This document shows positions 4,500 to 42,553 of a stretch of 64,000 nt of DNA, one piece after another; positions within the stretch are counted from its first letter, which is position 1, and every line of letters starts with the position of its first letter. Below the pieces are notes generated by a model. The model was not told the origin of the DNA. It worked only from the letters and a program-made list of their open reading frames with translations, and did no database searches. Source of the stretch: Candidatus Dojkabacteria bacterium (GTDB taxonomy: Bacteria; Patescibacteriota; Dojkabacteria; J137); contig JAUZRK010000025.1 in the NCBI GenBank assembly GCA_030950485.1, forward strand, positions 8,236-72,235, given 5' to 3'. The translations under genes and the position numbers were made by a program.

Positions 4500-4633
4500 A
4501 TTTTCTAATTAATATATAAATCTAAATTAATTATACTCCATTTTCTCATTCTATAAAGTATTTATTCTGGCTTTTAGTTGTGAAGATGAAGTCTTTTAGT
4601 TATCATTAATTGTTAATTTTTACAGAGAATATA

Positions 4634-6034
4634 ATGTTATCAGATAAAAAGAATAAAATAGTTTGTACAATTGGTCCATCAAGTTGGGTACCGGAAGTTA
4701 TGGAGAAAATGATTGATGCCGGTATGAACTGTGCAAGATATAACGGTGCGTTCGCGGACTGGGATTCATTAGAGAAGGTAACTAAGTTGGTACGAGACTT
4801 AGATAGTAAAGTTGCTTTAATGATAGATGTTAAAGGTCCTCAGATTAGAATGAATAATTTTGCTGAGGCAGTTGAAGTTAAAATCGGAGACGAATTTGTT
4901 ATTGGTTCTAAAGCTGAACATGGTGTTTTTACAGAGACTTACCCTGATTTATATAAATACCTTAAGCCAGGGCAGAAACTTCTATTAGGTGATGGTGACA
5001 CTGAGCTTGAAATTGTTGAAATAAAAGACAGTAAAATGTTTACTAAAGTTACTTTTGGAACTAAAGTAAAACCAGGTAAAGGAATAACAGCTCCTGGAGC
5101 TGAGTATCCTACTGTAGTATTAACTGAGAAAGATAAAGAAAATATCGAGAATTGTAAAAAATTAGGTTGGGATTTTGTTTCAGCTTCTTTTATAAGAAAT
5201 GCTAAGGATGCCCTAGAAGTGAAAGAAGTTATAGATGGCGAAATGCAATTAATTGCAAAGATTGAGAATGAAGAAGGAGTTGAGAATATAAAGGAAATTG
5301 TTGATGAAGTTGACGGAATTATGATTGGTAGAGGTGATCTTGGTTTACAACTAGGTTTGGAGAGAGTTCCAATGGTTCAAAGAATTGCTGTTGCAGCTTG
5401 TAACGAAATGAGTAAGCCAGTAATTACAGCAACTCAAATGCTAGAGTCTATGATCGAGGCTCCTAAACCAACAAGAGGTGAAGCTAATGACGTTGCTACA
5501 GCAATTTTAATGGGTACAGACTGTACTATGTTGTCAGCAGAAACTACTACAGGAAAATATCCTGTTGAAGCAGTTAGTTTTATGACTAAAATTTCTTACG
5601 AAATTGAAAAGTACAATATGCCTCAGATTATTGACAGTGATTCAAATCATTCAGTAGTAGCTGAAGCATTAACTAAAGCTGGTGCGGAATTATGTATAAA
5701 TTTAGGTGATGAAATAAAAGCTATCATTTGTGTTACTTCAACTGGAAATATGGCTAGATTACTTAGTAGACATTCACTAGATCAGAATATGTATGCTTTT
5801 GTTGAAAATGAAAAAGTTATGAGACAGTTAGCTCTTACTAAAGGAGTTAATGAAGCATTCTTATTTGAAGGACTAGGAGATAAAAGCTCAGATAGAGATG
5901 TCAGTGTTGAAGTTGTAAGAGAAAAAGTAAAAGAATTAGGACTAGCAAAAGAAGGAGAGAAAATTTTCTTAATTTCTAAATCACATGAAGGATCTACATT
6001 CTTTACAGGTGTATTTGAAGTTGTAACTATATAA
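4634..6034 (+). CDS. pyk: pyruvate kinase
   Basis: KIVCTIGPSS N-terminus, MIDVKGPQIR, MIGRGDLG motifs; ORF opens at 4610 but conserved N-terminus starts at ATG 4634. Confidence 0.9.
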   Translation: MLSDKKNKIVCTIGPSSWVPEVMEKMIDAGMNCARYNGAFADWDSLEKVTKLVRDLDSKVALMIDVKGPQIRMNNFAEAVEVKIGDEFVIGSKAEHGVFTETYPDLYKYLKPGQKLLLGDGDTELEIVEIKDSKMFTKVTFGTKVKPGKGITAPGAEYPTVVLTEKDKENIENCKKLGWDFVSASFIRNAKDALEVKEVIDGEMQLIAKIENEEGVENIKEIVDEVDGIMIGRGDLGLQLGLERVPMVQRIAVAACNEMSKPVITATQMLESMIEAPKPTRGEANDVATAILMGTDCTMLSAETTTGKYPVEAVSFMTKISYEIEKYNMPQIIDSDSNHSVVAEALTKAGAELCINLGDEIKAIICVTSTGNMARLLSRHSLDQNMYAFVENEKVMRQLALTKGVNEAFLFEGLGDKSSDRDVSVEVVREKVKELGLAKEGEKIFLISKSHEGSTFFTGVFEVVTI

Positions 6035-24004: not shown

Positions 24005-24233
24005 ATATTAAATTATACCAATTGTTCTAATTTCTAATTATTCTAAGTAATAATTTTAATGCAATCTTTTACTTTAGAGTAATTAAACCAATTAGGTTAA
24101 TTAGAATAATTCAGTTATTAATTTGCCTGTAATTTTATCATTAATAAGGTATTCAATAAAGTATAAAAGACTTTATATTACTACTAAATCCATATATCAT
24201 GTTCTCGTAAACATAAATTATGAAAGATACTAA

Positions 24234-25943: not shown

Positions 25944-26002
25944 ATCCACTTTCTTATTCACTTCATTTTAAGCAATAATTGTGACGCCAAATACTGCAAA
26001 CA

Positions 26003-26011
26003 TGGTATAAT
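26003..26011 (+). promoter_or_regulatory. extended -10 promoter element (TGgTATAAT) upstream of 26033 gene
   Basis: TGGTATAAT located 22 nt upstream of ATG. Confidence 0.4.
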
Positions 26012-26032
26012 ATCGTAGTTATATACAATATT

Positions 26033-27151: not shown

Positions 27152-27177
27152 TTTTTTTTGGTGATTATATTAGATAT

Positions 27178-28260
27178 ATGAGTACAGTTGATTTCTATCA
27201 GAATGAAGAGATAGAAGATGTTTATGATTCAATACTAGATAGGGCTAAACAAGCTTTGTCTAATCCAGAAATTGAGGGGACATATTTGAACTCCTTCTAC
27301 CCTACTTCTTCAGATGGTCTTTTAAGAGTTAGGGATGAAATAAGTATAATTGTCCAGGAAGCTGAGGGTTCAGAGGTGAGCTCAGCTATGGTAGCAAGCT
27401 CCGGAGATGCAGTACTTCTTGCAATTTCAGAAGGGGTTAGAAAAATTGATGTTTTTGATGTATCTCAAATTGCTCTAGCATATACTCAGCTAAAATTAGT
27501 AGCAGTGAAGTATCTAGATTATGATGATTACATCTCAATCTTTGATATGAATCATAAATTAAATGAAAACACTGTTCTAACAGAAGGTGATATTGCTAAA
27601 TTGAAAATACCTTTGGAAACAGAAGGTTTAGTAAAGCTACACGATCTAATGGTTAATGTACTAGAAATCGGAGCTCTTAACTTAGACTACAATAAACTAG
27701 TAAGATACCGAGAAGTTAGAACTGAAACAAGTAGCATGGCTACTCCACCAGCATTTTCTGGAGATAGAAAAGCTTTCATGCATGCCAAGGCACAATTAAA
27801 AAATAATAATGTTGAAGCTAGTTTTAAAGAAATTGACGCTGAATATATAGTTACAGAAGAAGATGAAATATATGATTACATATTTTTGAGCAATATAGGA
27901 ATAGAATTCGAATCTACTGTCGGTTATGCAAATTGGCTACTGGCTAACGATATAACAAAAAAAGTTATATTTACAGGTGGATTTTGGTATGAAGATAGTG
28001 GTATTAATCCCACTAGAAATATTATTAAAATAGATGATCAACTGACTTTTCGAGGCAAGCCATTAGAAACTAATGCTGCTATTAAGCGAGTAAAAAGTAA
28101 GTATAATTATCCAATAACGGTTGTATACACAGATGGGAATCATAATATTCATGGTGGTGGTCTAGTTTTTGAGGCTACAAGAGCTGATAATCTGAATAAA
28201 AAGCTGTGGATTGAATCACGACTACAAAGGCTTCAAAGATTCTTAGGTCTTGAACAATAA
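27178..28260 (+). CDS. BtaA-like/DUF3419-family putative SAM-dependent transferase (paralog 2)
   Basis: Same motif set as upstream paralog (MVASSGDAVLLAISEG..IDVFDVSQIALAYTQLKLVAVKYLDYDDYISIFD; YDYIFLSNIG). Confidence 0.45.
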   Translation: MSTVDFYQNEEIEDVYDSILDRAKQALSNPEIEGTYLNSFYPTSSDGLLRVRDEISIIVQEAEGSEVSSAMVASSGDAVLLAISEGVRKIDVFDVSQIALAYTQLKLVAVKYLDYDDYISIFDMNHKLNENTVLTEGDIAKLKIPLETEGLVKLHDLMVNVLEIGALNLDYNKLVRYREVRTETSSMATPPAFSGDRKAFMHAKAQLKNNNVEASFKEIDAEYIVTEEDEIYDYIFLSNIGIEFESTVGYANWLLANDITKKVIFTGGFWYEDSGINPTRNIIKIDDQLTFRGKPLETNAAIKRVKSKYNYPITVVYTDGNHNIHGGGLVFEATRADNLNKKLWIESRLQRLQRFLGLEQ

Positions 28261-28398
28261 TAGTCAAAAGTTAACCTCTATATAATGATAATTGAGATAA
28301 TCTTTAATTCTTTATACCTTCAAAGTTATTCGGGACAGGCTTCTCGTCTTACTAGGAACGATTATATATTTAGTTCTATGTTACGGGAGTTTATTACT

Positions 28399-28473
28399 TG
28401 GTGAGCTGGGTGGGACTCGAACCCACAACCAATGCCTTAAGAGGGCACTGCTCTACCATTGAGCTACCAACCC
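28399..28473 (-). tRNA. tRNA-Lys (CTT), CCA encoded
   Basis: Hand-folded cloverleaf: acceptor GGGTTGG/CCAGCTC (2 GU), D-arm GCTCAATGGTAGAGC, anticodon loop CTCTTAA, T-arm GTGGGTTCGAGTCCCAC, ACCA 3' end. Confidence 0.85.
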
Positions 28474-28490
28474 ATGGAGGATTTTAAATA

Positions 28491-28563
28491 TACGCCAGGC
28501 ACGATTCGAACGTGCGACCTACTGCTTAGAAGGCAGTTGCTCTATCCACTGAGCTACTGGCGC
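28491..28563 (-). tRNA. tRNA-Arg (TCT), CCA not encoded
   Basis: Acceptor GCGCCAG/CTGGCGT, D-arm GCTCAGTGGATAGAGC, anticodon stem ACTGC/GCAGT with loop CTTCTAA, T-arm GCACGTTCGAATCGTGC. Confidence 0.85.
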
Positions 28564-28682
28564 ATAACTTTATAAGTGTACACTTATTTGTGAGTTTTTA
28601 AAAGAACTGTTAAAAAGTCTGGAAGAATTTTAACACTTTTTAGTGATCTATTAAAGTCTTTAAAACTAAGGTATAATTAATA

Positions 28683-29546
28683 GTGATGAAGATATCCGAT
28701 AAATATAAAAATAAAATAATTGATGGGAAAAAGCTATCTTTAGAAATCAACATAGCTACTAAAGAATTCATTGCTAGATCTACTAATAAGTTTAAATTAG
28801 CAATAATATTAGCTTCTAATGATAAATCAAGTGAGGTATATGTTCGCTTGAAGAAAAAGAAAGCAATTGAGCTTGGTATAGAAATTGAAATCGTATCTTT
28901 CGATAATTCAATAAGTAAGACTGGATTATTAAATAAAATAGAATCATTAAATAGCGATAAGTCTATCAATGGAATTTTACTTCAACTTCCCTTATATGAT
29001 CATTTAGAAGATAATCGATCTGAAATTATAAATTCAATAAAAGCAGAAAAAGATGTAGATGGACTAACTGCAATGCAACTTGGAATGAGTATTCATAGCA
29101 ATCCAAATAGTTTCCGTCCAGCTACAGTAGTAGCAATACTCGAGGCTCTTAAAAGTGTTGTAGAAGACTTTATTAAACTAAAGGGTAAGAATATAGTAAT
29201 TTTAAATAATTCTAATCTAATCGGAAAACCTCTGGCAATGATTTTAAGTAATTATGGAGCTATTGTTACTATTGCAAATGAAAATATTACAGATTTGAAT
29301 GATATTACAAAAAAAGCAGATGTCTTAGTAACAGCTACTGGTAAGACAAATCTTATGGATTATTCAATGGTAAAAAATGGTGCTATTTTAATTGATGTTA
29401 CTAGTGTCTCAACTAAAAATGGCGTACTTGGAGATATTATTCCAACCGAGGAGCTTTTAGAAAAATGTAGTTACTATACACCAGTTCCTGGAGGAATCGG
29501 ACCTATGACTATTGCTTGTTTACTTAGAAATGTTATAAAAACCTAA
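28683..29546 (+). CDS. folD: bifunctional methylenetetrahydrofolate dehydrogenase/cyclohydrolase
   Basis: 287 aa; ...VYVRLKKKK..., DVDGL, PVPGGIGPMTIACLL motifs. Confidence 0.9.
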   Translation: MMKISDKYKNKIIDGKKLSLEINIATKEFIARSTNKFKLAIILASNDKSSEVYVRLKKKKAIELGIEIEIVSFDNSISKTGLLNKIESLNSDKSINGILLQLPLYDHLEDNRSEIINSIKAEKDVDGLTAMQLGMSIHSNPNSFRPATVVAILEALKSVVEDFIKLKGKNIVILNNSNLIGKPLAMILSNYGAIVTIANENITDLNDITKKADVLVTATGKTNLMDYSMVKNGAILIDVTSVSTKNGVLGDIIPTEELLEKCSYYTPVPGGIGPMTIACLLRNVIKT

Positions 29547-29578
29547 TAAATAATTAGAATAAAAATGGATAAAATAGT

Positions 29579-30193
29579 TTGGGCAAAAGCAAAGAAAATG
29601 TAAAAGATGGAACTATATTCCAAATCAGAGATGCTGAAGCATTTGTTGATTTAAGAGAACAGCGAGGTAAAGTTATAATAGGCAACTCTTACTTAATTAT
29701 GATTATTGATAAAGAGAGTAAGAAGGAACTTATAGCTACAGAGAAGATCACAAATCATTTATTGGAAACTGTTGAGGAGGATTTGTACAAGAAAAATGAT
29801 AAAGTATCTGGATACATCTACCAGAAAACTCAGTTCGGACTTAAAGTTTGTTTCGATGAAAAATATAGTGGAGTTATATATGCTAACGAGATATTTAAAA
29901 ATTATAGAATCGGAGAGAAAGTTGATTTATACATTAAAGAAGTGCGCCCAGATTTAAAAGTTACTTTATCATTTCAACCTATAGGTTTCATAGCTGCAAT
30001 GGATGCAACGCAAGCTATTGTAATGGAGCGATTAAAGAGCGCGAATGGGTATTTAAGTGTTTCTGATAAGTCTTCACCAGAACTTATTAAAAAAGTTTTA
30101 GGTATTAGTAAGAAGAAATATAAAGACGCAATAGGAGGTCTTTATCGAGATAGAAAAATTCTTATAAAAGTAAACGGTATTGAACTCATATAA
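29579..30193 (+). CDS. CvfB/YitL-family S1-domain RNA-binding protein, N-terminally shortened (TTG start)
   Basis: C-terminal LSVSDKSSPELIKKVLGISKKKYKDAIGGLYRDRKILI matches CvfB winged-helix tail; only about 205 aa versus about 290, no room for first S1 domain between folD stop and this ORF. Confidence 0.6.
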   Translation: MGKSKENVKDGTIFQIRDAEAFVDLREQRGKVIIGNSYLIMIIDKESKKELIATEKITNHLLETVEEDLYKKNDKVSGYIYQKTQFGLKVCFDEKYSGVIYANEIFKNYRIGEKVDLYIKEVRPDLKVTLSFQPIGFIAAMDATQAIVMERLKSANGYLSVSDKSSPELIKKVLGISKKKYKDAIGGLYRDRKILIKVNGIELI

Positions 30194-30345
30194 TATTTTT
30201 TGCTTTGATTCAAACTAAAATAGAATTTAATAAAACTTATACGCTATTAATTTGTATTATTTACAATTATTAGCAAATTCGGAATATAATTAAAGTATTA
30301 GATAGTCTAATGATATCTAGTACTTTAATTTTTTAATGAAAAAAT

Positions 30346-30768
30346 ATGTTCGGATTAGGTAAAAAGAAGTCAAATGATCCTCAAGAAGCAGTGAATAATG
30401 CTAGTAAAACTATTAATAGTGGTTTACTTGGCGGACTTACAAAAGCATTCATGGGTAATGATTTTGTAAATAAAGCTAATGCTGGTTTAGGAGTAGCTCA
30501 AAATGCAATTAATGATACTCAGAAAAGAGCAGTTCTTATGGAAACTGGACTTAATGGTAAAGCTGTAGTTCTAAGTATTGAAGATACAGGAGCATTAGTT
30601 AACTTTAATCCTGTAGTTAAACTAAGCCTTAAAGTTACAGCAGATGATTCTAGTGAATTTGAGGCTACTTTAGAAACTATGGTTTCAAAAATAGCTATTC
30701 CTAGAGTTGGAGATGAGGTTAATGTTAAATATGATGCTACTGATAAGACAAATTTGATTATTGTGTAA
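30346..30768 (+). CDS. hypothetical protein
   Basis: 140-aa ORF. Confidence 0.4.
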   Translation: MFGLGKKKSNDPQEAVNNASKTINSGLLGGLTKAFMGNDFVNKANAGLGVAQNAINDTQKRAVLMETGLNGKAVVLSIEDTGALVNFNPVVKLSLKVTADDSSEFEATLETMVSKIAIPRVGDEVNVKYDATDKTNLIIV

Positions 30769-30831
30769 ATAGATTCGATATTTTAAATCTGTAGGATTAG
30801 CAGATCTGCGAGTCCTACAGTTTCATATATT

Positions 30832-31341
30832 TCAGCTTACTCTGGCAACTACTTCTTTAGGAAATTTCTCTGGCTCAGCTTTTATCTCTTCAAATGTATA
30901 TTTTTTACGATGATAATTTTTTTCTAACGGGTCTGTGTAATCAAATATTAGTACTAGTACGTAATTATCCATTAGGAAATATTGTTCCTTTTTCAAGCTA
31001 GTTTTATATTGATAAATCATTTCATTCACAGGAATCCAAAATGACGGATTTAATTCTAAATACTGTTTATTTGATTCTTGAAAGTCTTCCTCAGTGAAAT
31101 TTTCAGTAATATATTTAACTATTTCGTTATAAAGGTTATCTGGTAATAAATCTAATTTAGGCTTTTCTATAAATTTACCAAATGTTTGGTTATAAGTTTG
31201 ATAGACTCCAAATCTACGATTGTCTTCAGCTTTAAAGTGCCTGTCGGGGTTTTCAATTATATCTATTTCCCACCTTACTAACTTATCTTCAAATGAGACA
31301 ACTACTTTTGTTTCATTTTCTAAAGGGTATGACCAATTCAT
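30832..31341 (-). CDS. hypothetical protein (translationally coupled to upstream disrupted gene)
   Basis: 169-aa ORF; 4-nt overlap with ORF 31338-31619. Confidence 0.4.
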   Translation of the reverse strand: MNWSYPLENETKVVVSFEDKLVRWEIDIIENPDRHFKAEDNRRFGVYQTYNQTFGKFIEKPKLDLLPDNLYNEIVKYITENFTEEDFQESNKQYLELNPSFWIPVNEMIYQYKTSLKKEQYFLMDNYVLVLIFDYTDPLEKNYHRKKYTFEEIKAEPEKFPKEVVARVS

Positions 31342-32041
31342 TTATCTGTTTCTAACATATAATTTACATCAGTATTTATTCTACTGATATTAAGTTCTTT
31401 AATTTCATCCATTGATTTATCTCCGAAAGGTACTTTGGTTAGTCCTGCTAAATCAATCAGCTTAAGTTTTTGCTCATCTTTATCACAAATTACATGTGCA
31501 CCTGAATAAATAAACCCTTGCTCTGCAAGTGCTTGAGCAAGGTCTAAAATCTGTAGATCAAGCTTTCCGTTTTCTTTAAGCTCTCTTGCTTTTTTACTAC
31601 TCTGAGTTAGTAATTGCATGCCTATAATTTGATATGTTGCACCTTCTGATATGAAAGATAAAACTAACTTAGGTAGAAAACCTGTATTTTCTAAGGCTCT
31701 AAAGTTATCTATCTCTGTTTACATATAACCTCTTGCTTTAGACAAATCTGCCGTTTCATCAACAGTTGCTTTCATTTGCATGCTTGATACTTTATATAAA
31801 ATTGCTTCAAAAGGTATGTAAACCTTATATAAAACCTTATTACTATCTGTATAGATAAAGCCAGAACTTGATTCCATTTCTTTCTCAAAATTAATTCATC
31901 TTCATCTATTCCTAAATAGTTTGATAAGTTGCTTCTAGCAAATTTTTCTCGAGCATTGAATGCATCTAAAGCTATCTCATATGTAACTTCCTCAGATTTA
32001 ATTACTCTTACATTATCATTATCTTCAGGTAACTCTGCCAT
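31338..32041 (-). pseudogene. gene of unknown function disrupted by at least two frame breaks (between yaaA and 30832 gene)
   Basis: Protein-like translation switches frames near 31860 and again near 31715 (MAELPEDN...KKWNQV / SGFIYTDSNKVLYKV...SKARGYM / TEIDNFRALENTGFLPKLV...MQLLTQSSKKAREL...). Confidence 0.5.
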
Positions 32042-32045
32042 AATT

Positions 32046-32813
32046 TTAAATAATAGTTTTTACAAAAAATAAACTATTGTCATTTATTTGTTCAAGCTTA
32101 TAACCACCTAAATTAAATTTTTTAACACCTTCTATATCATTTATTTTATTTTTAATTAGGAAATCTATAAAACTTCCTCTTCCTTGTTTAGCATAAAGAC
32201 CTATATTTTTAGTAACAGAATTCTTAGTTTGTCTAAATTCTATATTAATAAATTTACCTTTAAGCTTTTTTATATCTATGACTTTAGAGTATTCACCGGA
32301 GGCCAAATTTATTACAAATCTACTTTCCTTTTTATATTTAACCATCTCTAAATTAAGATCATTAGTTACTAGAGTACTCCAAAATTTATAAAGTGTGGGT
32401 TTACTTAAATTTAATTTCTCAATATTAGCCTTCATTTCAAGCCTATAAGGTTTAATAAAATCATATGGTTTTAATATTCCATACATCCCTGTGATAATCC
32501 TTAAATGCTTTTGTAAGTATACATGATCTTGTTCATTGAAATTATGTGCTTCGAATTGTTTATAGATCTCTCCTTTATATACTTCAATAGCAGGCTTTTC
32601 TATAGCGGAGCTCCATGATTCAAATCTCTCATAATTCAAATCAGCTAATTTATCGCTCACCTTTAAAAATGATTTAAAAGCATTTTTATCTAGCTTTTTT
32701 ATATTAGTTGCTATTTTATTTGCTTTAGCTAAGTAAACTGGCTCGCTACTTAGTTTACTTATAATTTTCTTCGTAAAATCTTGAGTTTTTGCAGGTGAAG
32801 TTATAAAAACCAT
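32046..32813 (-). CDS. yaaA: YaaA-family (UPF0246/DUF328) peroxide-stress protein
   Basis: MVFITSPAKTQDF..., LRIITGMYGILKPYDFIKPYRLEM, VINLASGEYSKVID match YaaA closely. Confidence 0.85.
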   Translation of the reverse strand: MVFITSPAKTQDFTKKIISKLSSEPVYLAKANKIATNIKKLDKNAFKSFLKVSDKLADLNYERFESWSSAIEKPAIEVYKGEIYKQFEAHNFNEQDHVYLQKHLRIITGMYGILKPYDFIKPYRLEMKANIEKLNLSKPTLYKFWSTLVTNDLNLEMVKYKKESRFVINLASGEYSKVIDIKKLKGKFINIEFRQTKNSVTKNIGLYAKQGRGSFIDFLIKNKINDIEGVKKFNLGGYKLEQINDNSLFFVKTII

Positions 32814-32819
32814 CCAAAT

Positions 32820-33404
32820 TTATACAGAGAAAGTAGAAATCATCCTATTAACAAATTCTTTATCAATCAATGTATCTTCAGGCGTATTAGATTCACTATT
32901 ATTCCATTCAAAATAGAAATATAAACCTGATTCTTTATCATAGCCTAGTAATATACCTGGATATGCTTGAGATAATGCTACTTGATAATATTCTTCTTCG
33001 TTATATACATTAATGATAAAAGCTGTAGCAAAGCTAGATGGACAAAAATTGTCTATAAAGCTTGAATCTTTTGTTGATAAACAATAGATCATAGTATATT
33101 CATAAAAGCTTGTGTCTAAGAAAAAACTATCTGCGAGATCTCCTGCATCAAAACTATAACCAAATCTAGAATCACCAATATAATTATCTTTTGTGGCTAA
33201 TTCTGACTCATCTTGTATTTCTTCCAATGGTTCTACATTTATATCTTCTTCGGCTTCATTTTTCTCGTTAGAAGTTATCTCCTCAGTACTTACTTCATTA
33301 TTATTCTCTTTTATATTATTGGAAGATTTAAATAATAGTAATATTGACAGTAAAATTATTATCAATAATAGAAACATTGAATTCTTTATATTATCTTTGT
33401 TCAT
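32820..33404 (-). CDS. hypothetical secreted/membrane-anchored protein with acidic low-complexity region
   Basis: 194 aa; N-terminal hydrophobic segment, E/N-rich stretch. Confidence 0.4.
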   Translation of the reverse strand: MNKDNIKNSMFLLLIIILLSILLLFKSSNNIKENNNEVSTEEITSNEKNEAEEDINVEPLEEIQDESELATKDNYIGDSRFGYSFDAGDLADSFFLDTSFYEYTMIYCLSTKDSSFIDNFCPSSFATAFIINVYNEEEYYQVALSQAYPGILLGYDKESGLYFYFEWNNSESNTPEDTLIDKEFVNRMISTFSV

Positions 33405-33557
33405 TTTCTTTAGAGATATTAGAAAAAGTAATTTTATATTGAGGTGTTGTTTGTTAACTCAACTAATTTAAATACTACCATTTGAACTAACCGACATCAA
33501 TGAAACAATTATATATAAGCTAGAGCATAGTGTATAATCCTGCATATTTTTATCAAT

Positions 33558-34853
33558 ATGTCAGATAATCAACAAAATGCATATAGATCTGAGTTATCAG
33601 GCTCTCAAAGTTTAGATCTTAGAAGTAGGATGACTAGCTATGTAGATAGAAGTTTTGAAGATTATGTCCTAGCTAAACAAGAAGGTAGATATAATTGTGA
33701 ATATGATCAATATCAAGAACCTACTGCAGACTTTGAGTCTTTAATTAGTTATATAGAACTATTACTTGCTGAGAGAAGCAAGCACTTCTCTTTTAATACG
33801 ACAATAGGCTTTAAAGAAGGAGTTACAGATCAAGATAAGTTTGATCAGTCACTAAATGGAATGATTGAAGTATTTAGTGATTCTTCGAAGCTAATGGCTA
33901 ATCTTAATGACTTTGACTTATTAAAAAAAGCTGAATATATTATAAAAAATGAACATGAAAGAATTAATAGTTTCTTGAGAAAAAATGATTGGGGTGGTGA
34001 AAATGAAGATTATAACCAGTATAGAGAACTCAATAATAGAATGTATTCAATATTAAATGGGAACGGGGCTCGAATCTCTGATCTTATGAGAAGTAGTTCC
34101 ATAAGAGTTAGCATTACACCATATAATGAGAATTTAGATAAAGTATGTAGCCAAATATCTGATGCTTTAGAATCAATTGAGCAAGATTTAAATAAGAAGG
34201 GAATAAAATTTGACCAAAAATTACTTTATATTCTACGAGAGGGTCCAGCTCATGAAAAAAGTCATCAAGAAGCCTATATAAATTATATCCCTGATAGTGC
34301 TGATGGTAGAAGGGAGTATCTAAGAGAGGGAAGATCTGCCTTAGGTGGTTGGGTGAATTTCAGTGTAGAATTAGAAATTCAGAGACAAGGAGATACTATA
34401 GTAGCTGGAATGTCTGTAGGACTTCCTCATTTAATGTCTTTAGATGAAGCTATACATGTTTATCTAGCACCTGAAAAACCTTCCCTTGGAGACACACTTT
34501 TTACAGCTACGGAGATTTTTAGATATTTAGATACTAATTCACCACTTTATAATGAAGTTTTAGAAACTTTAACTGATGTTTGCATTGAACTTAACATTTT
34601 CAATATAGAGAACGATCCTAAAAACCTTATCTCTATTCCCATTCCCTTACAGATTGAACAAATACTTTTAAATAGAATTTTAAACATGAGAGATGGGCAA
34701 GAATTTATAGCGAATACACTGATGAGAAATATGAAATCTATTGAAGATATACTTGCTACAAGACTAGTAGAAATAATTAGAAAACATACTAAAAAAATAA
34801 TACTTCTTCACTATAATCAAAAAGCTTTTATTACCCCTAAATATTTAATCTAA
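33558..34853 (+). CDS. hypothetical protein
   Basis: 431-aa ORF, no recognised domain. Confidence 0.45.
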   Translation: MSDNQQNAYRSELSGSQSLDLRSRMTSYVDRSFEDYVLAKQEGRYNCEYDQYQEPTADFESLISYIELLLAERSKHFSFNTTIGFKEGVTDQDKFDQSLNGMIEVFSDSSKLMANLNDFDLLKKAEYIIKNEHERINSFLRKNDWGGENEDYNQYRELNNRMYSILNGNGARISDLMRSSSIRVSITPYNENLDKVCSQISDALESIEQDLNKKGIKFDQKLLYILREGPAHEKSHQEAYINYIPDSADGRREYLREGRSALGGWVNFSVELEIQRQGDTIVAGMSVGLPHLMSLDEAIHVYLAPEKPSLGDTLFTATEIFRYLDTNSPLYNEVLETLTDVCIELNIFNIENDPKNLISIPIPLQIEQILLNRILNMRDGQEFIANTLMRNMKSIEDILATRLVEIIRKHTKKIILLHYNQKAFITPKYLI

Positions 34854-34902
34854 AATAGTGAACTAATTCGAATAAGATTAATAAAATGATATACTTTAGC
34901 TC

Positions 34903-35505
34903 ATGAATGAATCAATAAAATATATTTCAAACAAATTAAGCATAGTTAGTAATAGCGTTAAAGCTACTATTGAACTGTTAGAAGACGGATCAACTGTACC
35001 ATTTATATCTAGATATAGAAAAGAAGCTACGGGAGGTTTAGATGAGGTCGAGATAAATGATATAAAAAATGAATTAGCTTTGTTTAAAGAAACTGAGGCG
35101 AGAAGATCTTTTATAATTAAAACTATAGATGAACAAGGAGAACTAACTGATGAATTAAAAATAAGTCTAGAGAAAGCTAGCGAACTGGCTGAATTAGAAG
35201 ATCTATACTTACCATACAAAAAGAAAAAGAAAACTAAGGGAACTATTGCTAAAAATAAGGGGCTAGAGCCTTTAGCTGAATTAATATTTGAACAAGGTGA
35301 TATTGACTTAAAAGTTGAGGCTTTAAAATTTATAACCTCCTCTGACGGTGTTAACTCTGAAACGAGTTCAGAGGAGCTTGCCGTCAACTCTATAGAGGAA
35401 GCTCTGGAGGGAACTAGGGATATAATTGCTGAATGGATTAATGAAGATATTGAAGCAAGGAATAAATTGAGAACATTATTTGAAAGAGAGGCAGAGTTGG
35501 ATTGA
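34903..35505 (+). pseudogene. tex: Tex (transcription accessory protein) N-terminal 200-aa fragment; remaining roughly 500 aa absent
   Basis: LEDGSTVPFISRYRKEATGGLDEVEI...LEDLYLPYKKKKKTKGTIAKNKGLEPLAE matches Tex N-terminal HTH/YqgF region; ORF ends at 35505 and is followed by an IS200-like remnant. Confidence 0.8.
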
Positions 35506-35542
35506 TGATGAAAGGATTGAATTAGGAATGAATTTCAATTGA

Positions 35543-35794
35543 TTGGAATGGATAGGGACAGGTTTCAAACCTGTCCCGACAGTCCCGACTAATAAAAATC
35601 ACACATTATCAGAAATAATCCGTGCTCTAAAAACCTTCTCTTCTCGAAGAATAAGCAAGATCTCAAATTCGAAATTCTGCTAGCAGCGATCATTCCACGA
35701 TAGAATAATCAGAAGCGAAAATGAATATATTAGAATTAAAGACTATATTCAAAATAACCCACGAAATTTAAAAAATAATAAACCTAATGATTAA
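35543..35794 (+). mobile_element. IS200/IS605-like (COG1943 transposase IS200-like / RAYT-like) tnpA C-terminal remnant with W-to-amber nonsense codon
   Basis: Frame-2 translation ...NHTLSEIIRALKTFSSRRISKISNSKFC*QRSFHDRIIRSENEYIRIKDYIQNNPRNL matches the ...GAIIRAFKSATTKRIN...VWQRNYYEHIIRNEKELNRIREYIINNP C-terminus; TAG 35681-35683 replaces conserved Trp; N-terminal catalytic part missing. Confidence 0.7.
35554..35576. repeat. perfect hairpin GGGACAGGTTT-C-AAACCTGTCCC (IS200/REP-like end structure)
   Basis: 11-bp perfect inverted repeat immediately 5' of the tnpA remnant. Confidence 0.5.
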
Positions 35795-36321
35795 TATATA
35801 CTCATTCAATTTATTTATCTTGCCTAACCTGTCATTTATCTGTAGAATCCAACACTTAAATAATACCTATGTACGGAATAACAAATCACTGTAAAGACTG
35901 TTCACAAGATACTAAATGTCCACTAATTCACGCAATGAAGTCAACGAGAAAGCCTGAAAATTTGTAACAACTTTTAGATCAATTACCTGGAGATAGTTCT
36001 GCCAAAATTGACGCTGGTAATTACTCTGAACTAGACGATACTACTAAAGTATATTTTGAAAATATATTAGCTGCAGCTGGTTTAGATATTAAAGTAGGAC
36101 AGTTTTTCCAAGCAGTTATAGCTAGCGATATAGAAGGTACTGCTTGTTATGGAGAGGACGATACAGGTTGGCTAGTTGCTTTTGAAGAAGCTTAACTAAT
36201 TACTTCTAATATCAGAAAAGCTCATCTACTATAGAAATAAAAATCATGTATTTAGCAGTATTACTATGTTGCCGAACTTTACCACCGATGATATAATCAA
36301 TATAGATTATAAAATTTCAAT

Positions 36322-36528
36322 ATGGCTCTGAATGATGTAATGCAACCAGATGACAACGAAGGTGGTAAAGAACCTAGTTTGTTTGAGATTATGAAGGAGG
36401 ATGAATTTCTTGAAGAAGTTTTGGCTCCATTTTTACCAATTATAAAAATTGAGAACTCTGCACAAAGAGAGGCTGCAAATACGCTAACTTTTAAAAAGTA
36501 CTCCACCTACTCAGTAACCCCCAGTTAG
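36322..36528 (+). CDS. hypothetical protein (may be N-terminal part of a frameshifted gene continuing in 36519-36938)
   Basis: 68-aa ORF ending 8 nt before next ORF in another frame. Confidence 0.3.
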   Translation: MALNDVMQPDDNEGGKEPSLFEIMKEDEFLEEVLAPFLPIIKIENSAQREAANTLTFKKYSTYSVTPS

Positions 36529-36536
36529 TACTTGAG

Positions 36537-36938
36537 GTGTTGAAAGATGAGGGGCTACAAAATTTCATACAAAACTTAGCTGTTTACGCTGATTCAGATA
36601 TTGAAGAAAAAAGAGGTGTTCCCCCTTATGAAACTCTAGAGTATGTTGCAAATGCATTAAATAACCATAGACAGAAACTAGTAAATCAAGCAAAAGTGCT
36701 AATTAGAACTGCAAGAAACGAAACTAGAGAATTATTAGTTGAAAAAAGACTTAGAAATGTAGATAATCAACAATTTTGTATTACAATACCATATGACTCT
36801 ATAGCAGAAGTAAATACAGTTTTTCTTTCAGAAGAAGATGCTCTAATTATAATTGCTGCTGGTATTAGATTAAGAGAATTAGGAGTAAAGCTATCGACAG
36901 AGACAATACACCACGAAACTCTACAAACAAACAAATAA
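36537..36938 (+). CDS. hypothetical protein (GTG start; frame open from 36519)
   Basis: 133-aa ORF. Confidence 0.35.
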   Translation: MLKDEGLQNFIQNLAVYADSDIEEKRGVPPYETLEYVANALNNHRQKLVNQAKVLIRTARNETRELLVEKRLRNVDNQQFCITIPYDSIAEVNTVFLSEEDALIIIAAGIRLRELGVKLSTETIHHETLQTNK

Positions 36939-36967
36939 CTACGAGACTTTTCAATGAAGAAGAAACA

Positions 36968-37222
36968 ATGGAGCTAAACGAAGATGAAAAAGAAGCAAGG
37001 TTATCAAGATTTGTAGCAATTAGACTAAAAACATTGTTTATGGTTTATAAATATACTGATCCCGAAATCTTTAATATCTCTCAAAGAGATGAAGAAGAGT
37101 ATAATACAGGTAATATTGACTTTACTGTAGATGAAGGAATGCATAAAATTTTAATGATTGGGTACAATAAGGATCTTTTTGATAGATGGCAAGATGGAGA
37201 TGAAATTGACGAATTAATTTAG
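36968..37222 (+). CDS. hypothetical protein
   Basis: 84-aa ORF. Confidence 0.3.
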   Translation: MELNEDEKEARLSRFVAIRLKTLFMVYKYTDPEIFNISQRDEEEYNTGNIDFTVDEGMHKILMIGYNKDLFDRWQDGDEIDELI

Positions 37223-37233
37223 TCTTGAGAGAA

Positions 37234-37959
37234 TTATTTATTGACAAAGTTCATAGCTCCTAGATCTGCTATTCTCTGAGCCTTTTGAAACAATACCTTA
37301 ATTTCTTCTTCATGTGAAATTAAACCTTGTTGACTAATGTGATTAGTACCAAAGAAATGAATAGTGTCTTCATTAATTAAGCCATATGACCATGAATGAC
37401 TACTCTCTTTATCCCCTAGATAAATAGTTGCCCTAATAGGTTGTCTAAATCGATTTCTAGCATAACTAAAGCCTATTGCAACTGAATAATTGCCATCTTT
37501 TGTCAAACCAATTCCTAAAGCCATAGGCAAATTATATTCTATGGGAGGAATAGGTAATTCTTCAGACGATTTAAAATTAAGCGAAGATTGGTTTATTGAT
37601 GGTTTTGTCGGACTAATTTCATGCAATGTATTTATTGAATAGCCTTTTATATCTCTTCCGCAATTACCATTCAGTGGATCTACTATTAGTATATTTTCTG
37701 AAAAATCTACTGGAGATGGTAGTTCAGGTAGTTTACCTGATAAATCAATTACAAAGTAAGCGTGACTTGCACCCTCCATAGAAAAATGAACTGAACTTGG
37801 CCCACCTACAAAAAAGAATCTAGCATTAGGATTACTTTGTTTTATATCAACTAATATATTATTATCTACCATTTCTGAAATATACCTCTGAGTAAGTCCA
37901 CTACATTGTCCTGCAGTTCTCTTATCGTTATTACTGTAAAATTCATCTATATGAATCAC
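37234..37959 (-). CDS. hypothetical protein with CHAP/papain-like GQCSG motif; probable frameshifted N-terminal extension (59-aa ORF 37966-38145)
   Basis: 241 aa, GTG start; upstream 59-aa ORF MDYIEDKNFGGMREL... ends where this frame opens. Confidence 0.4.
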   Translation of the reverse strand: MIHIDEFYSNNDKRTAGQCSGLTQRYISEMVDNNILVDIKQSNPNARFFFVGGPSSVHFSMEGASHAYFVIDLSGKLPELPSPVDFSENILIVDPLNGNCGRDIKGYSINTLHEISPTKPSINQSSLNFKSSEELPIPPIEYNLPMALGIGLTKDGNYSVAIGFSYARNRFRQPIRATIYLGDKESSHSWSYGLINEDTIHFFGTNHISQQGLISHEEEIKVLFQKAQRIADLGAMNFVNK

Positions 37960-38404
37960 AGGGGGAGCTTGCTCTGCTATTACAATGGAATGAAAATGTT
38001 ACCTTTTAACATCCCGTCTAAGTTTCCATCAGCATTTCTATATATTTGATGATATTCAATTGCTCTATCATGCATAGCTCTCATTGTGACTGAGTCAATT
38101 CCTAAATCTTTTCTGAGTTCTCTCATTCCTCCAAAGTTCTTATCTTCAATATAGTCCATTACTTGTACTAATAATAAGTTTGTAATTATAGATGACAGTA
38201 TATAATTTTGTAAATCAATTACCTTTTATTTATAATCACTTTAAACGCTTAAGTAAAAAGTACCTATTATTTTTTGACTAAGGTTTTTTTTTCAACAACT
38301 GCAGGACCTAGAGATTTCTCTTTCTCCTAAAATAATTTCATAATTCGTACTATAATGTTTCGCCGGCTTATACCTGCATATTGTATTTAATAATACCTAT
38401 ATAA

Positions 38405-39997
38405 ATGAGAAAATTATTAAAAAAATGGGAGCCTCTGATAATCATAAGTCTTGCGCTCTTTGTTGTAATAATCGACACAACAATAATTAACGTTTCAATT
38501 ACAGACGTTGTAAAAGATCTAGATACAGATATTGCAAGTATGCAGTGGGTTATTACTATTTACGCGCTTATTATGGCAGCTCTTCTAATTGTAGGAGGTA
38601 AACTTGGAGATATTTACGGAAGGAAGAGAATGTTTATGATAGGAAAGTTTACATACGGTGTTGGAACTTTTATAGCGTCTTTAAGTCAAAACCTGTTTAC
38701 ATTATTAATTGGATGGTCAATATTAGAAGGAATTGGAGGTGCATTAATAATGCCTGCTTCTCAAGCTCTATTAACTGACAATTATAAAGGAAGTGATAGA
38801 TCTATAGCTTTTGGTGTTTGGGGTGCAATAGCTGGTATAACTGTTGCTTTCGGTCCTATTGCAGGAGGATACCTAACTGCAAATGCAAGTTAGAGATGGG
38901 CATTTGCACTCGAACTAATAATAGTATTCTTAGTTCTTGCCTTCTCTACTAGATTAAAAGAGATTTATGTAAGAAGAGATATTAAATTAGACATTGTAGG
39001 TTCCGTACTTTCAATCTTAGGATTAGGTTTTCTAGTTTTAGAAGCGAGAGAATACGGATGGTTAAAAGCTAAAAAGGCTTATGAATTATTCGGAACTACT
39101 ATAAACTTGGGAGATTTATCTATTGCACCAGTTTTTATATCAATCGGTATATTACTAACTTCACTAATGGTGCTTTGGTTATATAAAAGAGAGGGAGGAG
39201 GAAAAGATACACTTTTCAGTCCTAAGATCTTTAAATTTAAAGACTTTGACTTTAGTCTAGCTACCATATTTATAGTTTTAATACCAATGTCTGGAATGAT
39301 GTTTACTCTACCAGTTTTCTGGCAATCAGTAAGACATTATGATGCATTCGAAACTGGTTTGACATTCTTGCCTTATTCAATAACTCTTTTCTTAATAGCT
39401 CCTTCTATGGGTAAGCTTGCATCAAAAGTTTCACCAAAATATATAATTCAAAGTGGAATTGTATTATCAATGGTAGGACTATGGTTAATGCACGATAGTT
39501 TCACTGTAGATTCAACTTGGAAAAGTGCAGCACTAAGTATTGGAGTTTATGGAGCTGGTATAGCAATGGTATTTTCACAAATCCAAAACTACTTACTATC
39601 TACAGTTGATAAAAAATATGTAGGTGAAGCTTCTGGGTTAAACTCAGCAGTTAGACAATTAGGAAGTGCCTTAGGTACTACAATTTTAGGAACAGTATTT
39701 TTAAGTATTGTCACTAGCACAATGACTACAAATATTAATGAAAGTGATATTCTTTCAAATGATATAAAAACAGAACTTATTCAAAGTGTTCAAGCAAGCA
39801 GCGGTTTCGGTGAAAGAAACAATAGTCAGGAAACTGAATTACCCGAATCTATTTCTAGTGAGATAGAAACTTTAAGTAATGAATCTATTTTGGAATCATT
39901 AAAAGATACTTTTTTAATAGGAATAGGAGTAACTGCAATATCACTTCTAGTAAGTTTTGGACTTCCAAAGAAGTTAGAAGAGGAAATCGAGGGATAA
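38405..39997 (+). pseudogene. MFS transporter, DHA2 (EmrB/QacA-like) family, interrupted by in-frame TAG at 38891-38893
   Basis: ORF 38405-38893 ends ...GGYLTANAS* and same frame continues RWAFALELII...; in DHA2 proteins this region reads GG(W/Y)LT..xSWRWIFLIN, so TAG replaces the conserved Trp; downstream ORF 39107-39997 carries TM7-14. Confidence 0.75.
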
Positions 39998-40020
39998 TAT
40001 TTTTTAAGAAAATAAACTAT

Positions 40021-40599
40021 ATGGCTGAATTACCAGATAAAGAATCAAAAACATTTGATGAAGCTGTAGAAACAGCTATTACGGAAGCAGACAATGATCA
40101 AATATCTCAGATAGAATTAATTTTAGAAGAAAGTGAAGCAAAAGCGAGAAAAGGACACAAAATTGCTATAGTACTTAATATGCCTGAAGAACCTTCTTTC
40201 AATTTGTCGAGTAAACACAGCTATTTTAGTAGAATTTATGAAATAACTTTAACCTTATTAGGTCTTGAAGTTGATGGTATTCGGACTTTTAAGTCAGAAT
40301 TATTGAGCGCTATAGATATACTAACTGATGAGAAAGTAGATCAAGTGAGACAAATTTCTCAAGATAAAACAATTTCAAAATATCTAAGAATGCATAAAGT
40401 TTTTAGAGAAGTACTAATTGATCTTGTTCCAAGTAACTACAGAGACGAAGATTTGCCAGAAAGAACTCTGGGTTTTATTATAAGTCGAAAATTGGGAATT
40501 AGAATTCCACCTATGGATACAGAAGAAAAAGGGAAGAAAAAGGGAAGAAAATTGGAAGAATTAGAAGTAATTCTTATAATAGGAGCAATGGCAAATTAA
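40021..40599 (+). CDS. hypothetical protein
   Basis: 192-aa ORF; C-terminal K/G-rich tandem 11-nt repeat. Confidence 0.4.
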   Translation: MAELPDKESKTFDEAVETAITEADNDQISQIELILEESEAKARKGHKIAIVLNMPEEPSFNLSSKHSYFSRIYEITLTLLGLEVDGIRTFKSELLSAIDILTDEKVDQVRQISQDKTISKYLRMHKVFREVLIDLVPSNYRDEDLPERTLGFIISRKLGIRIPPMDTEEKGKKKGRKLEELEVILIIGAMAN

Positions 40600-40735
40600 A
40601 AGAGTCTTAGGTGAAAACCTCAGTACTCTTACATCTAGTACTTAGACAAATACATAAACTTAGCACTATGGGATATAGTCTGGATTTCTTTAAAACTTAG
40701 CTAGAAGTTCAATACATGCAGTTTATGTTAGATTC

Positions 40736-42553
40736 TTAGCTAGCAATCTCTAACCACTTATTAGTTTTTAACTCCAACTCACTTTCCAACTCTTTTACCT
40801 TAATAGAGATTTTTTCAATTTTTTCAAAATCATCACCTAAATTGAACATCTTATTCTTAAGATCTTCTAGTTTATCCTCTATTCTTTTAATTTCTTTAAG
40901 TATTACCTTTTTCTCATCACTCTCAGACTTCTTAACTACAGCTACCTTAGGCGTCGGATCTTTTGGTTTATCAGAACCCTTTTTATTTATAAAATCACTA
41001 TAGTTTCCGGGAAAAACATCAATCTCACCATCACCTTTGAATACTAAAAGATGATCTACAGTTGTATCAATAAAATATCTGTCGTGAGAAACTATAATTA
41101 CACAACCCTTAAAGTTAATTAAAAATTCTTCTAAAACTTCTAAAGTCATTAAATCAAAATCATTTGTCGGTTCATCAAGAATCAAAAAATTTGGATTATT
41201 CATTAATACCTTTAATAAAGCTACTCTCTTTCTCTCACCTCCACTTAAATCTTCTATTTTAGTTCTTTGAATAGTTCCACTAAATAAAAACCTTTCAAGC
41301 ATTTTTCCAGCACTTATAAATTTTCCATCAGATAGTTTTATTTCAGAAGCTACTTCATTTATTGAATCTATAATTGTTAGATTTGGGTTTAGTTCTTCTT
41401 GGTGTTGAGAATAGTAACCAAAATTTACAGTTTCTCCTTTAACTATCTTTCCGCCATCAATTTCCTTTTTACCTAAAATAAGATCTAAAAATGTAGATTT
41501 ACCTGCTCCATTTTCACCAATTATTCCAATTCTTGAACCTTTTTCAAAAGTATAAGTAAATTTATCTAGAATTTTCTTTTCCCCAAAGCTTTTAGATACA
41601 TTATGTAGTTCTAGTATTTTTGAACCTAATCTATCTGAGACAACGTCTAGACTTACTTTATCAACAGTATTTTTTGAACCTAAATTTTCCCTTGCTAGCT
41701 GATTATCTCTAATCCTCGCGCCATCTTTTGATTGTCTTCCCTGTGGCTGCTTACTAATTATTTCATACTCTCTTTTTAAATAAGTTCTCGTCTTATCTAT
41801 ATTAATATTTTCATCTAATCTTCTTTTTTCTCTGTATTCTAGATATTGTGTATAGTTTCCAATATGTTTATAGAGTTGCCCTCGGTCTAGCTCTAAAATT
41901 GTATTACAAACTTTATCTAAAAAGTAACGATCGTGAGTTACTAATAGGATTGAAGCTTCTAAATTTCTCAGATAATTCCCTAGCCATTCAATCATTTCAA
42001 TATCTAAATGATTAGTAGGCTCATCTAGTAATAAAACATCTGCTTCATCTAGTAAAATTTTAACTAAAGCTAACCTTTTCTTCTGACCTCCAGAAAAGCT
42101 CGATATCTTTTCATCTCTATAGTCGCTTAACTTTAATCTCTCTAAAACTTCACTAACTACATTCTCATATTCCCAAGCATTCAACCTATTCATTTCATTC
42201 ATTGCAAGTTCCAATCTCTTTGGATCATTTATATCTTGTATAGCTTCCTCATATTCACTTACTGCCTTTAGAAATTTTGAACCTGTATTTCTTAACTCTT
42301 CATTTAAAGTATTGTTATCCTCAAGATCTGGGTTTTGTGAAAGATATGAAATGTGAATTCCATTCTGTGTAGTAATATCTCCTTTGTCGTACTCTATTAC
42401 ACCTGCTAGAATTTTTAAAATAGTAGATTTACCTTTTCCATTTTCTGCAACAAGTGCAATTTTCTCATTCTTTGCAATTGAGAAGTTTATATTCTCAAAT
42501 AGATTTCTACTTAAAATATCCTTTTTTAAATTTTCAACAACTATATAACTCAT
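40736..42553 (-). CDS. ABC-F family ATPase (two ABC domains, C-terminal coiled coil; EttA/Uup-like)
   Basis: Two Walker A (GKGKST, GAGKST), two LSGG signatures, no TM domain. Confidence 0.85.
   Translation of the reverse strand: MSYIVVENLKKDILSRNLFENINFSIAKNEKIALVAENGKGKSTILKILAGVIEYDKGDITTQNGIHISYLSQNPDLEDNNTLNEELRNTGSKFLKAVSEYEEAIQDINDPKRLELAMNEMNRLNAWEYENVVSEVLERLKLSDYRDEKISSFSGGQKKRLALVKILLDEADVLLLDEPTNHLDIEMIEWLGNYLRNLEASILLVTHDRYFLDKVCNTILELDRGQLYKHIGNYTQYLEYREKRRLDENINIDKTRTYLKREYEIISKQPQGRQSKDGARIRDNQLARENLGSKNTVDKVSLDVVSDRLGSKILELHNVSKSFGEKKILDKFTYTFEKGSRIGIIGENGAGKSTFLDLILGKKEIDGGKIVKGETVNFGYYSQHQEELNPNLTIIDSINEVASEIKLSDGKFISAGKMLERFLFSGTIQRTKIEDLSGGERKRVALLKVLMNNPNFLILDEPTNDFDLMTLEVLEEFLINFKGCVIIVSHDRYFIDTTVDHLLVFKGDGEIDVFPGNYSDFINKKGSDKPKDPTPKVAVVKKSESDEKKVILKEIKRIEDKLEDLKNKMFNLGDDFEKIEKISIKVKELESELELKTNKWLEIAS

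Follow-up and report, generated by a model that had tools for sequence, protein, structure and literature searches.

The 64,000-nucleotide stretch of a Candidatus Dojkabacteria bacterium analyzed here (contig JAUZRK010000025.1 of assembly GCA_030950485.1; hereafter the window) contains, at positions 34903-35794, two incomplete genes on the same strand: the 5' part of tex (tex', product Tex') and the 3' part of a gene for a REP-associated tyrosine transposase (RAYT; REP, repetitive extragenic palindrome), named tnpA-REP' or RAYT' below. Comparison with relatives of both genes leads us to read the locus as a deletion scar that joins two gene relics, probably left by a single deletion from mid-tex to a REP embedded in a RAYT gene downstream. 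Dojkabacteria (WS6) are a candidate phylum, and the window has a GC content of ~31%.

An initial annotation, made from the letters alone, had described tex as cut at residue 200 with the remainder of the gene absent, and both observations hold. Tex' matches Pfam Tex_N (PF09371; E 4.2e-26, 90.9 bits) over residues 3-76 (profile 2-75 of 75), and its residues 158-199 correspond to positions 17-58 of 178 in Pfam Tex_central_region. It aligns with chain residues 23-195 of 780-785 in the P. aeruginosa Tex structures 3BZC/2OCE (E 8e-32), with residues 1-190 of 773 in E. coli YhgF (39% identity, E 3e-33, tblastn) and with residues 1 to ~185 of ~707 in Bacteroidota Tex. Homology stops at 35499-35502, and the TGA stands at 35503-35505. 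A tblastn search of all frames of the whole 64 kb at E <= 10 with six full-length queries, one from E. coli and five from Bacteroidota (706-708 aa), gave no match to Tex beyond residue ~185-190. Tex' is colinear with Tex/YhgF/PA5201 (Pfam Tex_N, Tex_central_region, Tex_YqgF, HHH_3/HHH_9 and S1; PDB 3BZC) across the Tex_N helix-turn-helix (HTH) domain and for ~115 residues into the central helical region, at 39-56% identity, and the conserved core VPFISRYRKEATGGLDE is retained, whereas the YqgF-like, helix-hairpin-helix (HhH) and C-terminal S1 domains are missing, which amounts to about 74% of the protein, including its nucleic-acid-binding part (the domain list rests in part on Pfam annotations of intact tex genes). 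Since all three nucleic-acid-binding or nuclease-like domains are gone, Tex' is predicted to be incapable of the function of its family; the open frame may still be translated as an orphan HTH-domain protein.

Forty nucleotides after the end of the tex stop (35505), where the C-terminal ~80 residues of a transposase had been proposed, homology to the Y1 family indeed sets in at 35546, 6 nt ahead of the REP foot described below. Read from this position, the frame gives EWIGTGFKPVPTVPTNKNHTLSEIIRALKTFSSRRISKISNSKFC, a stop, QRSFHDRIIRSENEYIRIKDYIQNNPRNLKNNKPND and the final stop, and it matches the C-terminal half of Pfam Y1_Tnp (E 4e-5, profile 59-121 of 121). A hidden Markov model (HMM) of the family, built here from 63 intact relatives (212 nodes), aligns with the remnant over nodes 111-192 (E 5e-29); nodes 1-110, which include the HuH motif NH[IFV]H, have no match in the three frames of 35300-35546, and the HuH part of a RAYT has none elsewhere in the 64-kb window. 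Identity to relatives is 44-57%, and 20 of the 21 positions that are invariant in the family are kept. The tyrosine motif is present as KDYIQNNP on the C-terminal helix, which fits YIxNNP, and the frame ends 9 codons past NNP with no C-terminal tail domain, as in relatives P0121-P0128. The remnant had initially been labeled IS200-like/REP-associated; the COG1943/RAYT half of that label stands and the IS200 half does not, the NCBIfam model REP_Tyr_transpos scoring E 1.2e-10 versus E 0.058 for transpos_IS200.

The replacement of a conserved Trp codon by TAG, also reported initially, is borne out by the alignments, in which a 2-codon deletion lies directly upstream of it. This TAG is one transition away from TGG, a plain G>A change in an AT-rich genome. 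Reading TAG as Trp, for which the window holds two in-frame cases (the WQ motif of the RAYT, and the position between AS and RW in a gene of the MFS family), was considered and rejected: TAG is an ordinary stop that ends 22 of the 90 long open stretches in the window, and only the MFS gene reads through it. That MFS_1 gene (38405-39997) is split by an in-frame TAG at 38891-38893, between TANAS and RWAF, into parts that cover Pfam profile positions 2-148 and 152-347; the same TAG is found in a second assembly from this species, GCA_030949735.1, and is an ordinary nonsense mutation.

RAYTs are typically single-copy, domesticated genes and are not known to be self-mobile. Within the family, the remnant belongs with TnpA-REP subclass 2.4 (Quentin, Siguier, Chandler & Fichant 2018, BMC Genomics 19:475, PMC6006769), which is RAYT group 4 of Bertels et al. 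2017. This subclass is defined by the HuH motif NH[IFV]H, the W motif WQ, the Y motif YIxNNP, the lack of a tail domain and 'long' or 'double foot' REPs; its genes average 1.5 copies per genome without features of an insertion sequence (IS), and they have been described mainly from Cyanobacteria and Bacteroidetes (PMC6006769). The variable beta3-alphaC insertion, which lies between their HuH and Tyr motifs, contains an in-frame REP, and short DNA repeats have been reported from it (PMC6006769). The remnant shares the Q of the W motif (its Trp position being TAG), the YIQNNP motif, the absence of a tail and an in-frame double-foot REP (GT[AG]G...C[TC]AC) between beta3 and alphaC, and because these match Table 1 and the text of PMC6006769 it is, by its motifs, the 3' part of a subclass 2.4 gene; short duplications of a REP arm in the beta3-alphaC insertion are a further likeness. 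It differs from the subclass in that only the 3' 39% is left, with no HuH, a TAG for the Trp and mutations in both REP feet (aTAG, CgAC), in that no flanking REP occurs within 1 kb beyond one half-site, and in its host, a member of the Dojkabacteria with ~31% GC. Because the metal-binding HuH motif is gone, and with the premature stop in addition, RAYT' is predicted to be unable to perform the family function, a relic of a subclass member rather than a functional one.

Two better-known relatives help to place it. E. coli TnpA-REP (RAYT group 2, subclass 2.2; PDB 4ER8) belongs to the same HuH/Tyr fold family, our family alignment matching its residues 73-123 (E 1.7e-4) including WQ...R and the YI..NP helix, and its target is likewise a GTAG-footed REP hairpin; however, its motifs are YIHYNP and DHLH, its REPs flank the gene with none inserted inside, and the protein is complete, with activity shown in vitro. 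IS200/IS605 TnpA (subclass 1.1) shares the Y1_Tnp domain and belongs to a family that recognizes DNA hairpins, but its Y[IV]ENQ and W[TS] motifs are not those of the remnant, and the subterminal hairpins at both ends, the high copy number and the frequent tnpB partner of such elements have no counterpart here. The remnant's only hairpin lies inside the reading frame, and neither a second end nor a target-site structure nor a further copy occurs in the 64 kb.

This hairpin (35555-35577; GGGACAGGTTT-C-AAACCTGTCCC) is real and perfect, as first noted, with 11-nt arms that are 100% complementary and a 1-nt loop. The window contains it once (expectation from 100 shuffles, 0), and the further copies that the initial annotation suggested looking for were not found in the 64 kb with up to 3 mismatches. 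Its proposed role as an IS200/REP end at the junction has to be abandoned, because it lies within the remnant's reading frame at the position of the internal REP of subclass 2.4. In translation the REP reads I-G-T-G-F-K-P-V-P-T, and the alphaC helix (LSEIIRALKTF) follows directly. The nearest homologues, at 44-56% identity, have VETGFKPVST or RAGLEPAPT right after the HuH motif (MPNHVHGIIII), and in their DNA these peptides are translated palindromes with GTAG/CTAC feet, such as GTAGAGACAGGTTTCAAACCTGTCTCTAC in L002 and GTAGAGACGGGTTTCAAACCCGTCTCTAC in L004, the latter followed by a duplicated 3' arm; L005 carries four copies of GGGCGGGTT..AACCCGCCC, one upstream of the gene, two inside and one just past the stop. 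We surveyed 80 metagenomic relatives (more than 500 family loci were matched) for a perfect, in-frame hairpin of at least 8 bp in the 160 nt before helix alphaC. A hairpin occurs at the same position in 68 of them; of these, 62 show a GT[AG]G foot, a C[TC]AC foot or both, and 39 show both. The stems comprise 32 distinct sequences, all still complementary, and at 19 loci further copies of the gene's own hairpin lie outside it. The best match, the intact gene L089, has CGTAGGGACAGGTTTCAAACCTGTCCCTACG at the same place (VGTGFKPVPT), with a 23-nt core identical to that of the window. Arm and foot duplications similar to the one listed in the table recur in relatives (AAACCCGTCTCTAC twice in L004; peptide repeats in L113 and L156). 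Judged by frame and position, the hairpin is thus an in-gene double-foot REP of subclass 2.4, located in the loop that links the HuH strand to helix alphaC, and not the end of an element. RAYT' is a decayed additional member of a described subclass, whose in-gene REPs are already known.

Outside the remnant, traces of REPs are sparse. No flanking canonical or double-foot GT[AG]G REP was found within about 1 kb of the remnant. The half-site past its stop may, with some uncertainty, be the vestige of a 3'-flanking REP, and GACAGGTT/AACCTGTC occur 5 times in the window versus 0.92 expected. A related hairpin lies 29 kb away at 6049-6080 (AAAAAGAGACAGGTTATAACCTGTCTCTTTTT). It is a perfect palindrome of 16 bp, has both an A-tract and a T-tract, begins 15 nt past the stop of an open reading frame (ORF; 4610..6034) and has the look of a bidirectional terminator. 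The core of its stem, GACAGGTT/AACCTGTC, is also the core of the embedded REP (35557-35575), and its arm AGAGACAGGTT is the REP arm of L002; the palindrome may descend from a REP and have been co-opted as a terminator, or the likeness may be coincidental. The hairpin at 35555-35577 was itself considered as an intrinsic terminator and rejected, as it has no T-tract and no terminator-like site occurs in 34600-36300. As single-stranded DNA, the 101 nt at 35500-35600 fold stably (-14.4 kcal/mol, z = -3.3); lying 50 nt past the tex' stop, the hairpin could at most form a 3' stem-loop on a tex' transcript.

Table 1. Features of the tex'/tnpA-REP' locus, in coordinates of the 64-kb window.
Feature	Position	Strand	Description
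tex'	34903..35505	+	200 codons plus TGA, no stop or frameshift; N-terminal helix-turn-helix and first helices of the central region; ~26% of a protein of ~707-785 aa
Junction	35506..35545		40 nt (TGATGAAAGGATTGAATTAGGAATGAATTTCAATTGATTG); would contain the deletion breakpoint; matches neither the Tex nor the RAYT profile in any frame
tnpA-REP'	35546..35794	+	3' 82 codons plus TAA (35792-35794) of a gene assigned to TnpA-REP subclass 2.4 (RAYT group 4); HuH half gone; 3' 39% of the gene
Embedded 'double-foot' REP	35552..35580	+	In frame; aTAG-GGACAGGTTT-C-AAACCTGTCC-CgAC; one base decayed per foot versus GTAG...CTAC
Partial tandem duplication of REP 3' arm and foot	35581..35589	+	9 nt, AGTCCCGAC after TGTCCCGAC; peptide PVPT-VPT
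TAG for invariant Trp of WQ motif	35681..35683	+	From alignments to relatives; Trp in all eight closest homologues; Q kept
Half-site AACCTGTC	35826..35833		32 nt past the remnant stop; the intact relative L005 has a REP just after its stop codon

In the history that we favor, tex and a RAYT gene on the same strand would have adjoined or lain near each other in an ancestor of this Dojkabacteria lineage. One deletion would have begun at tex codon ~200 and ended no more than ~45 nt upstream of the embedded REP, taking the YqgF, HhH and S1 parts of Tex together with the HuH half of the RAYT, its RAYT-side endpoint probably set by the REP through RAYT cleavage at the GTAG foot or through breakage or slippage at the hairpin. 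The TGG>TAG change, the 2-codon deletion and one mutation per REP foot would have followed in the remnant. The initial annotation had postulated an IS insertion into tex and then a deletion that removed the 3' part of tex and the 5' part of tnpA. Of these steps the deletion is retained, and the insertion is unnecessary because no tex 3' sequence occurs beyond the remnant or elsewhere in the window and one deletion suffices; since none lies on the far side, a single deletion works only if the RAYT stood downstream of tex and not inside it. Both fragments look young as pseudogenes, in that tex' has no stop or frameshift and keeps the conserved core of the protein, and the remnant still has nearly all of the invariant family positions. 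GC content at third codon positions (GC3) is 0.23 in tex' and 0.27 in RAYT', compared with 0.176 +/- 0.023 in the genes of the window and a mean of 0.46 for the same core in relatives, which fits either long residence or an AT-rich donor. A decayed HuH region in the junction (GMNFN, a stop, LEWI) was considered and rejected: the family HMM match stops at 35546, and at the nucleotide level the junction resembles the HuH/beta3 coding region of 72 relatives no more than shuffled sequence does, 157 of 300 shuffles scoring as well.

Breakpoints at the embedded REP recur among relatives. In L172, the 3' half of a RAYT gene directly follows the stop of an unrelated TaqI_C-type gene, and the GTAG foot is the exact point from which it is homologous to the intact relative L002; L004 and L109 have lost the segment with the HuH motif as far as GTAG. 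Two more of the 80 relatives lack the 5' half, one (L100) with a break about 50 nt upstream of the REP and the other (L121) ambiguous. Independent truncations or deletions within 10 nt of the foot thus make up 3 of 4-5 events (window, L172, L004/L109), for which P is about 1e-4 to 3e-4 if breakpoints are uniform over the 5' half, a rough figure from few, hand-picked events. This is a hint, not a demonstration, that RAYT cleavage or hairpin instability sets the deletion endpoint. We would go further only tentatively, and with more doubt than belief: the embedded REP may be a built-in fragile site, where cleavage of the GTAG foot by the RAYT or hairpin-provoked breakage would start deletions that repeatedly destroy the RAYT and neighboring host genes, as with tex here.

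Several side observations concern these relatives. L005, L101 and L126 have a second in-frame REP site in the N-terminal half, after the motif FG(E/D)(I/V), and L004 and L109 lack exactly the segment between this site and the HuH-proximal REP, which suggests REP-to-REP recombination or deletion as the cause of their HuH loss. The closest relatives of the remnant (L002/L003, L172 and L004) lie beside or inside restriction-modification genes, and all of these copies are damaged: in L002 the RAYT separates the N-terminal part of a TaqI_C-type gene from its last 50 aa; in L172 a RAYT 3' half stands between a gene of this type with a complete C-terminus and a short, degenerate repeat of that gene; and in L004 the RAYT comes after hsdM-hsdS.

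A number of results weigh against the single-deletion history. The 40-nt junction is without a match to Tex or RAYT, and the breakpoint statistic rests on 4-5 events picked by eye. No syntenic relative was found, so the ancestral order of tex followed by a RAYT has not been observed; the comparison of tex loci that the initial annotation had suggested gave a RAYT within 10 kb at 0 of 80 Bacteroidota loci. The closest Tex among 1.84 billion representatives is ~56% identical, the orphan gene upstream has no relative in the metagenome scan, and the nearest other YaaA (L171) is 50% identical and not syntenic. A yaaA-tex linkage, seen once (L087), is absent from the 80 tex loci and from L171, and we take it as coincidence. 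Because only one other hairpin with the same stem core occurs in the 64 kb (6049-6080), the many REPs that a once active REP/RAYT system should have left behind are not in evidence. A foreign origin would also fit the GC3 of the two fragments, which slightly exceeds the host mean, and the segment 33.6-41.4 kb forms a separate small contig, full of orphan and broken ORFs, in the second assembly, so that a variable island could have brought in both fragments at once.

That last point leads to the best-placed of the alternatives, an unlikely one in our judgment, in which the fragments were acquired already fused or broken on a horizontally transferred, strain-variable island and neither tex nor RAYT ever functioned in this lineage. 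In GCA_030949735.1, a 166-kb contig (L169), which also encodes the YaaA of the window, equals window positions 22045-33561 at 99.91% identity and ends exactly at 33561, and the 7,256-bp contig JAUZSD010000014.1 equals 34103-41362 at 99.70% identity; this assembly (loci L169 and L170) thus carries the 33.6-41.4 kb segment apart from its flanks. Substitutions and complex indels between the two assemblies cluster at 34151-34703, inside an orphan 431-aa ORF, and the segment holding tex' and RAYT' looks strain-variable by this comparison. The segment's orphan ORFs without Pfam or PHROG matches, its several broken genes and the raised GC3 of the fragments fit such an island, as does the distribution of relatives: the best-matching named Tex proteins and the main subclass 2.4 hosts are Bacteroidota, no other Dojkabacteria Tex appears among the matches, and the genome-contig scan gave Tex matches in Bacteroidota only, with peptide patterns that were biased to AT-rich codings. 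Against it, the GC and GC3 of the fragments are near those of the host (GC3 0.23-0.27 versus 0.18) and far from the family mean of 0.46, a Tex identity of ~50% to Bacteroidota is ordinary inter-phylum similarity rather than a mark of recent transfer, and none of the 80 loci shows a donor-like tex-RAYT adjacency.

Less likely again is the insertion of an IS200-like or REP/RAYT cassette into tex near codon 200, followed by deletions that took the 5' half of the cassette and the 3' part of tex, with the hairpin as the end of the element. REPs are known to land inside genes (PMC3733652), and the RAYT of L002, which sits between the N-terminal part and the C-terminal 50 aa of a TaqI_C-type gene, indicates that cassettes can end up within genes; exactly the order tex'-REP-RAYT 3' half would result if the embedded REP recombined with a REP on the left flank, with L004/L109 as a similar case, and the half-site 32 nt past the remnant could be counted in its favor. 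However, the hairpin is in frame at the internal REP position of subclass 2.4 rather than at an end, the motifs are those of a RAYT and not of IS200, and genes of this subclass average 1.5 copies per genome and have no IS features (PMC6006769). With no tex 3' sequence after the remnant, an insertion and two deletions would be needed where one deletion is enough.

It is also improbable, somewhat more so than either of these, that only the RAYT part is a pseudogene and that Tex' is a maintained stand-alone 200-aa HTH-domain gene with its own function. In favor of this, the ORF is unbroken and its conservation strong (Tex_N, 90.9 bits), both assemblies retain it and differ there by a single nonsynonymous change (S13G), and NCBI annotates the identical protein, from a metagenome-assembled genome (MAG), as 'Tex-like N-terminal domain-containing protein [Candidatus Dojkabacteria bacterium]'. 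Three unrelated metagenome contigs have tex interrupted at a similar point, as a 195-aa Tex N-terminal ORF without the downstream remainder in L086 and as two adjacent ORFs in L087 (186+529 aa) and L088 (202+546 aa). A natural split point near residue 186-202 was considered and set aside, since matches of such length are expected from the bias of a 200-aa query, the most likely explanation, and two of the three contigs checked carry split full-length genes. Moreover, the homology of Tex' stops in the middle of the central helical region (profile 58 of 178), at no domain boundary, the ORF ends one codon past the end of homology, in unrelated sequence, and there is no population of close homologues for a selection test.

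An assembly chimera, which the initial annotation had named, together with an intact tex elsewhere, as fatal to its own account, or a sequencing error at the junction or the TAG is very unlikely, because although the source is a MAG, the two assemblies differ mostly by indels and two gene disruptions in the window are frameshifts near homopolymers, the independently assembled GCA_030949735.1 contig spans the locus with an identical truncation point, junction, hairpin and TAG and with a sole difference within 34903-35794 (34939 A/G, the S13G substitution in Tex') and no indel, and composition is uniform across the junction. Elsewhere, over the 11.5 kb shared with the 166-kb contig (22045-33561), the assemblies show 8 gap openings (9 gap positions) and 1 mismatch. 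A Na+/H+ exchanger gene (24234-25943) is intact in the window (569 aa) and fragmented in the other assembly (180, 80 and 60 aa), and together with the gap openings this points to uncorrected indel errors in at least one assembly.

Around the locus, the upstream neighbors are FolD, a CvfB-like protein, YaaA and orphan ORFs, and the downstream neighbors are further orphan ORFs, the broken MFS transporter and an ABC-F protein; the flanking orphan genes have no relatives in the metagenome scan and no Pfam or PHROG match. Just downstream, the orphan ORF 35869-36195 contains an in-frame TAA (35965-35967) and the orphan ORF 36322-36938 a change of frame near TTTTAAAAAG (about 36489-36498); both lesions are the same in the second assembly, and neither ORF has a Pfam or PHROG match. 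On the reverse strand, an HI0933-like flavoprotein gene (42614-43854) is split into ORFs of 244 and 161 aa by a frameshift in an A8 run (about 43164-43171). The frameshift may be genuine or may stem from misreading of the homopolymer during sequencing; its position falls outside the compared contig of the second assembly. Two tandem paralogous ORFs of 372 and 360 aa at 26033-28260 match the N-terminal part of DUF3419 weakly (E 9e-7 and 1e-5, below the Pfam cutoff).

For annotation, these results mean that the 200-aa 'Tex-like N-terminal domain-containing protein' in the public record represents a truncated gene, that the unannotated stretch after it is a RAYT pseudogene, and that its conspicuous hairpin should not be annotated as an IS end. 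For the organism, they show that a subclass 2.4 REP/RAYT system was once present in, or reached, a Dojkabacteria lineage of the Candidate Phyla Radiation and was later lost, which adds one small example of how streamlined genomes turn over mobile elements and lose genes. The one novel lead is the possible use of in-gene REPs as preferred deletion endpoints, for which hundreds of family loci are available; if true, it would provide a self-limiting route for the loss of REP/RAYT systems, with collateral gene loss in small genomes.

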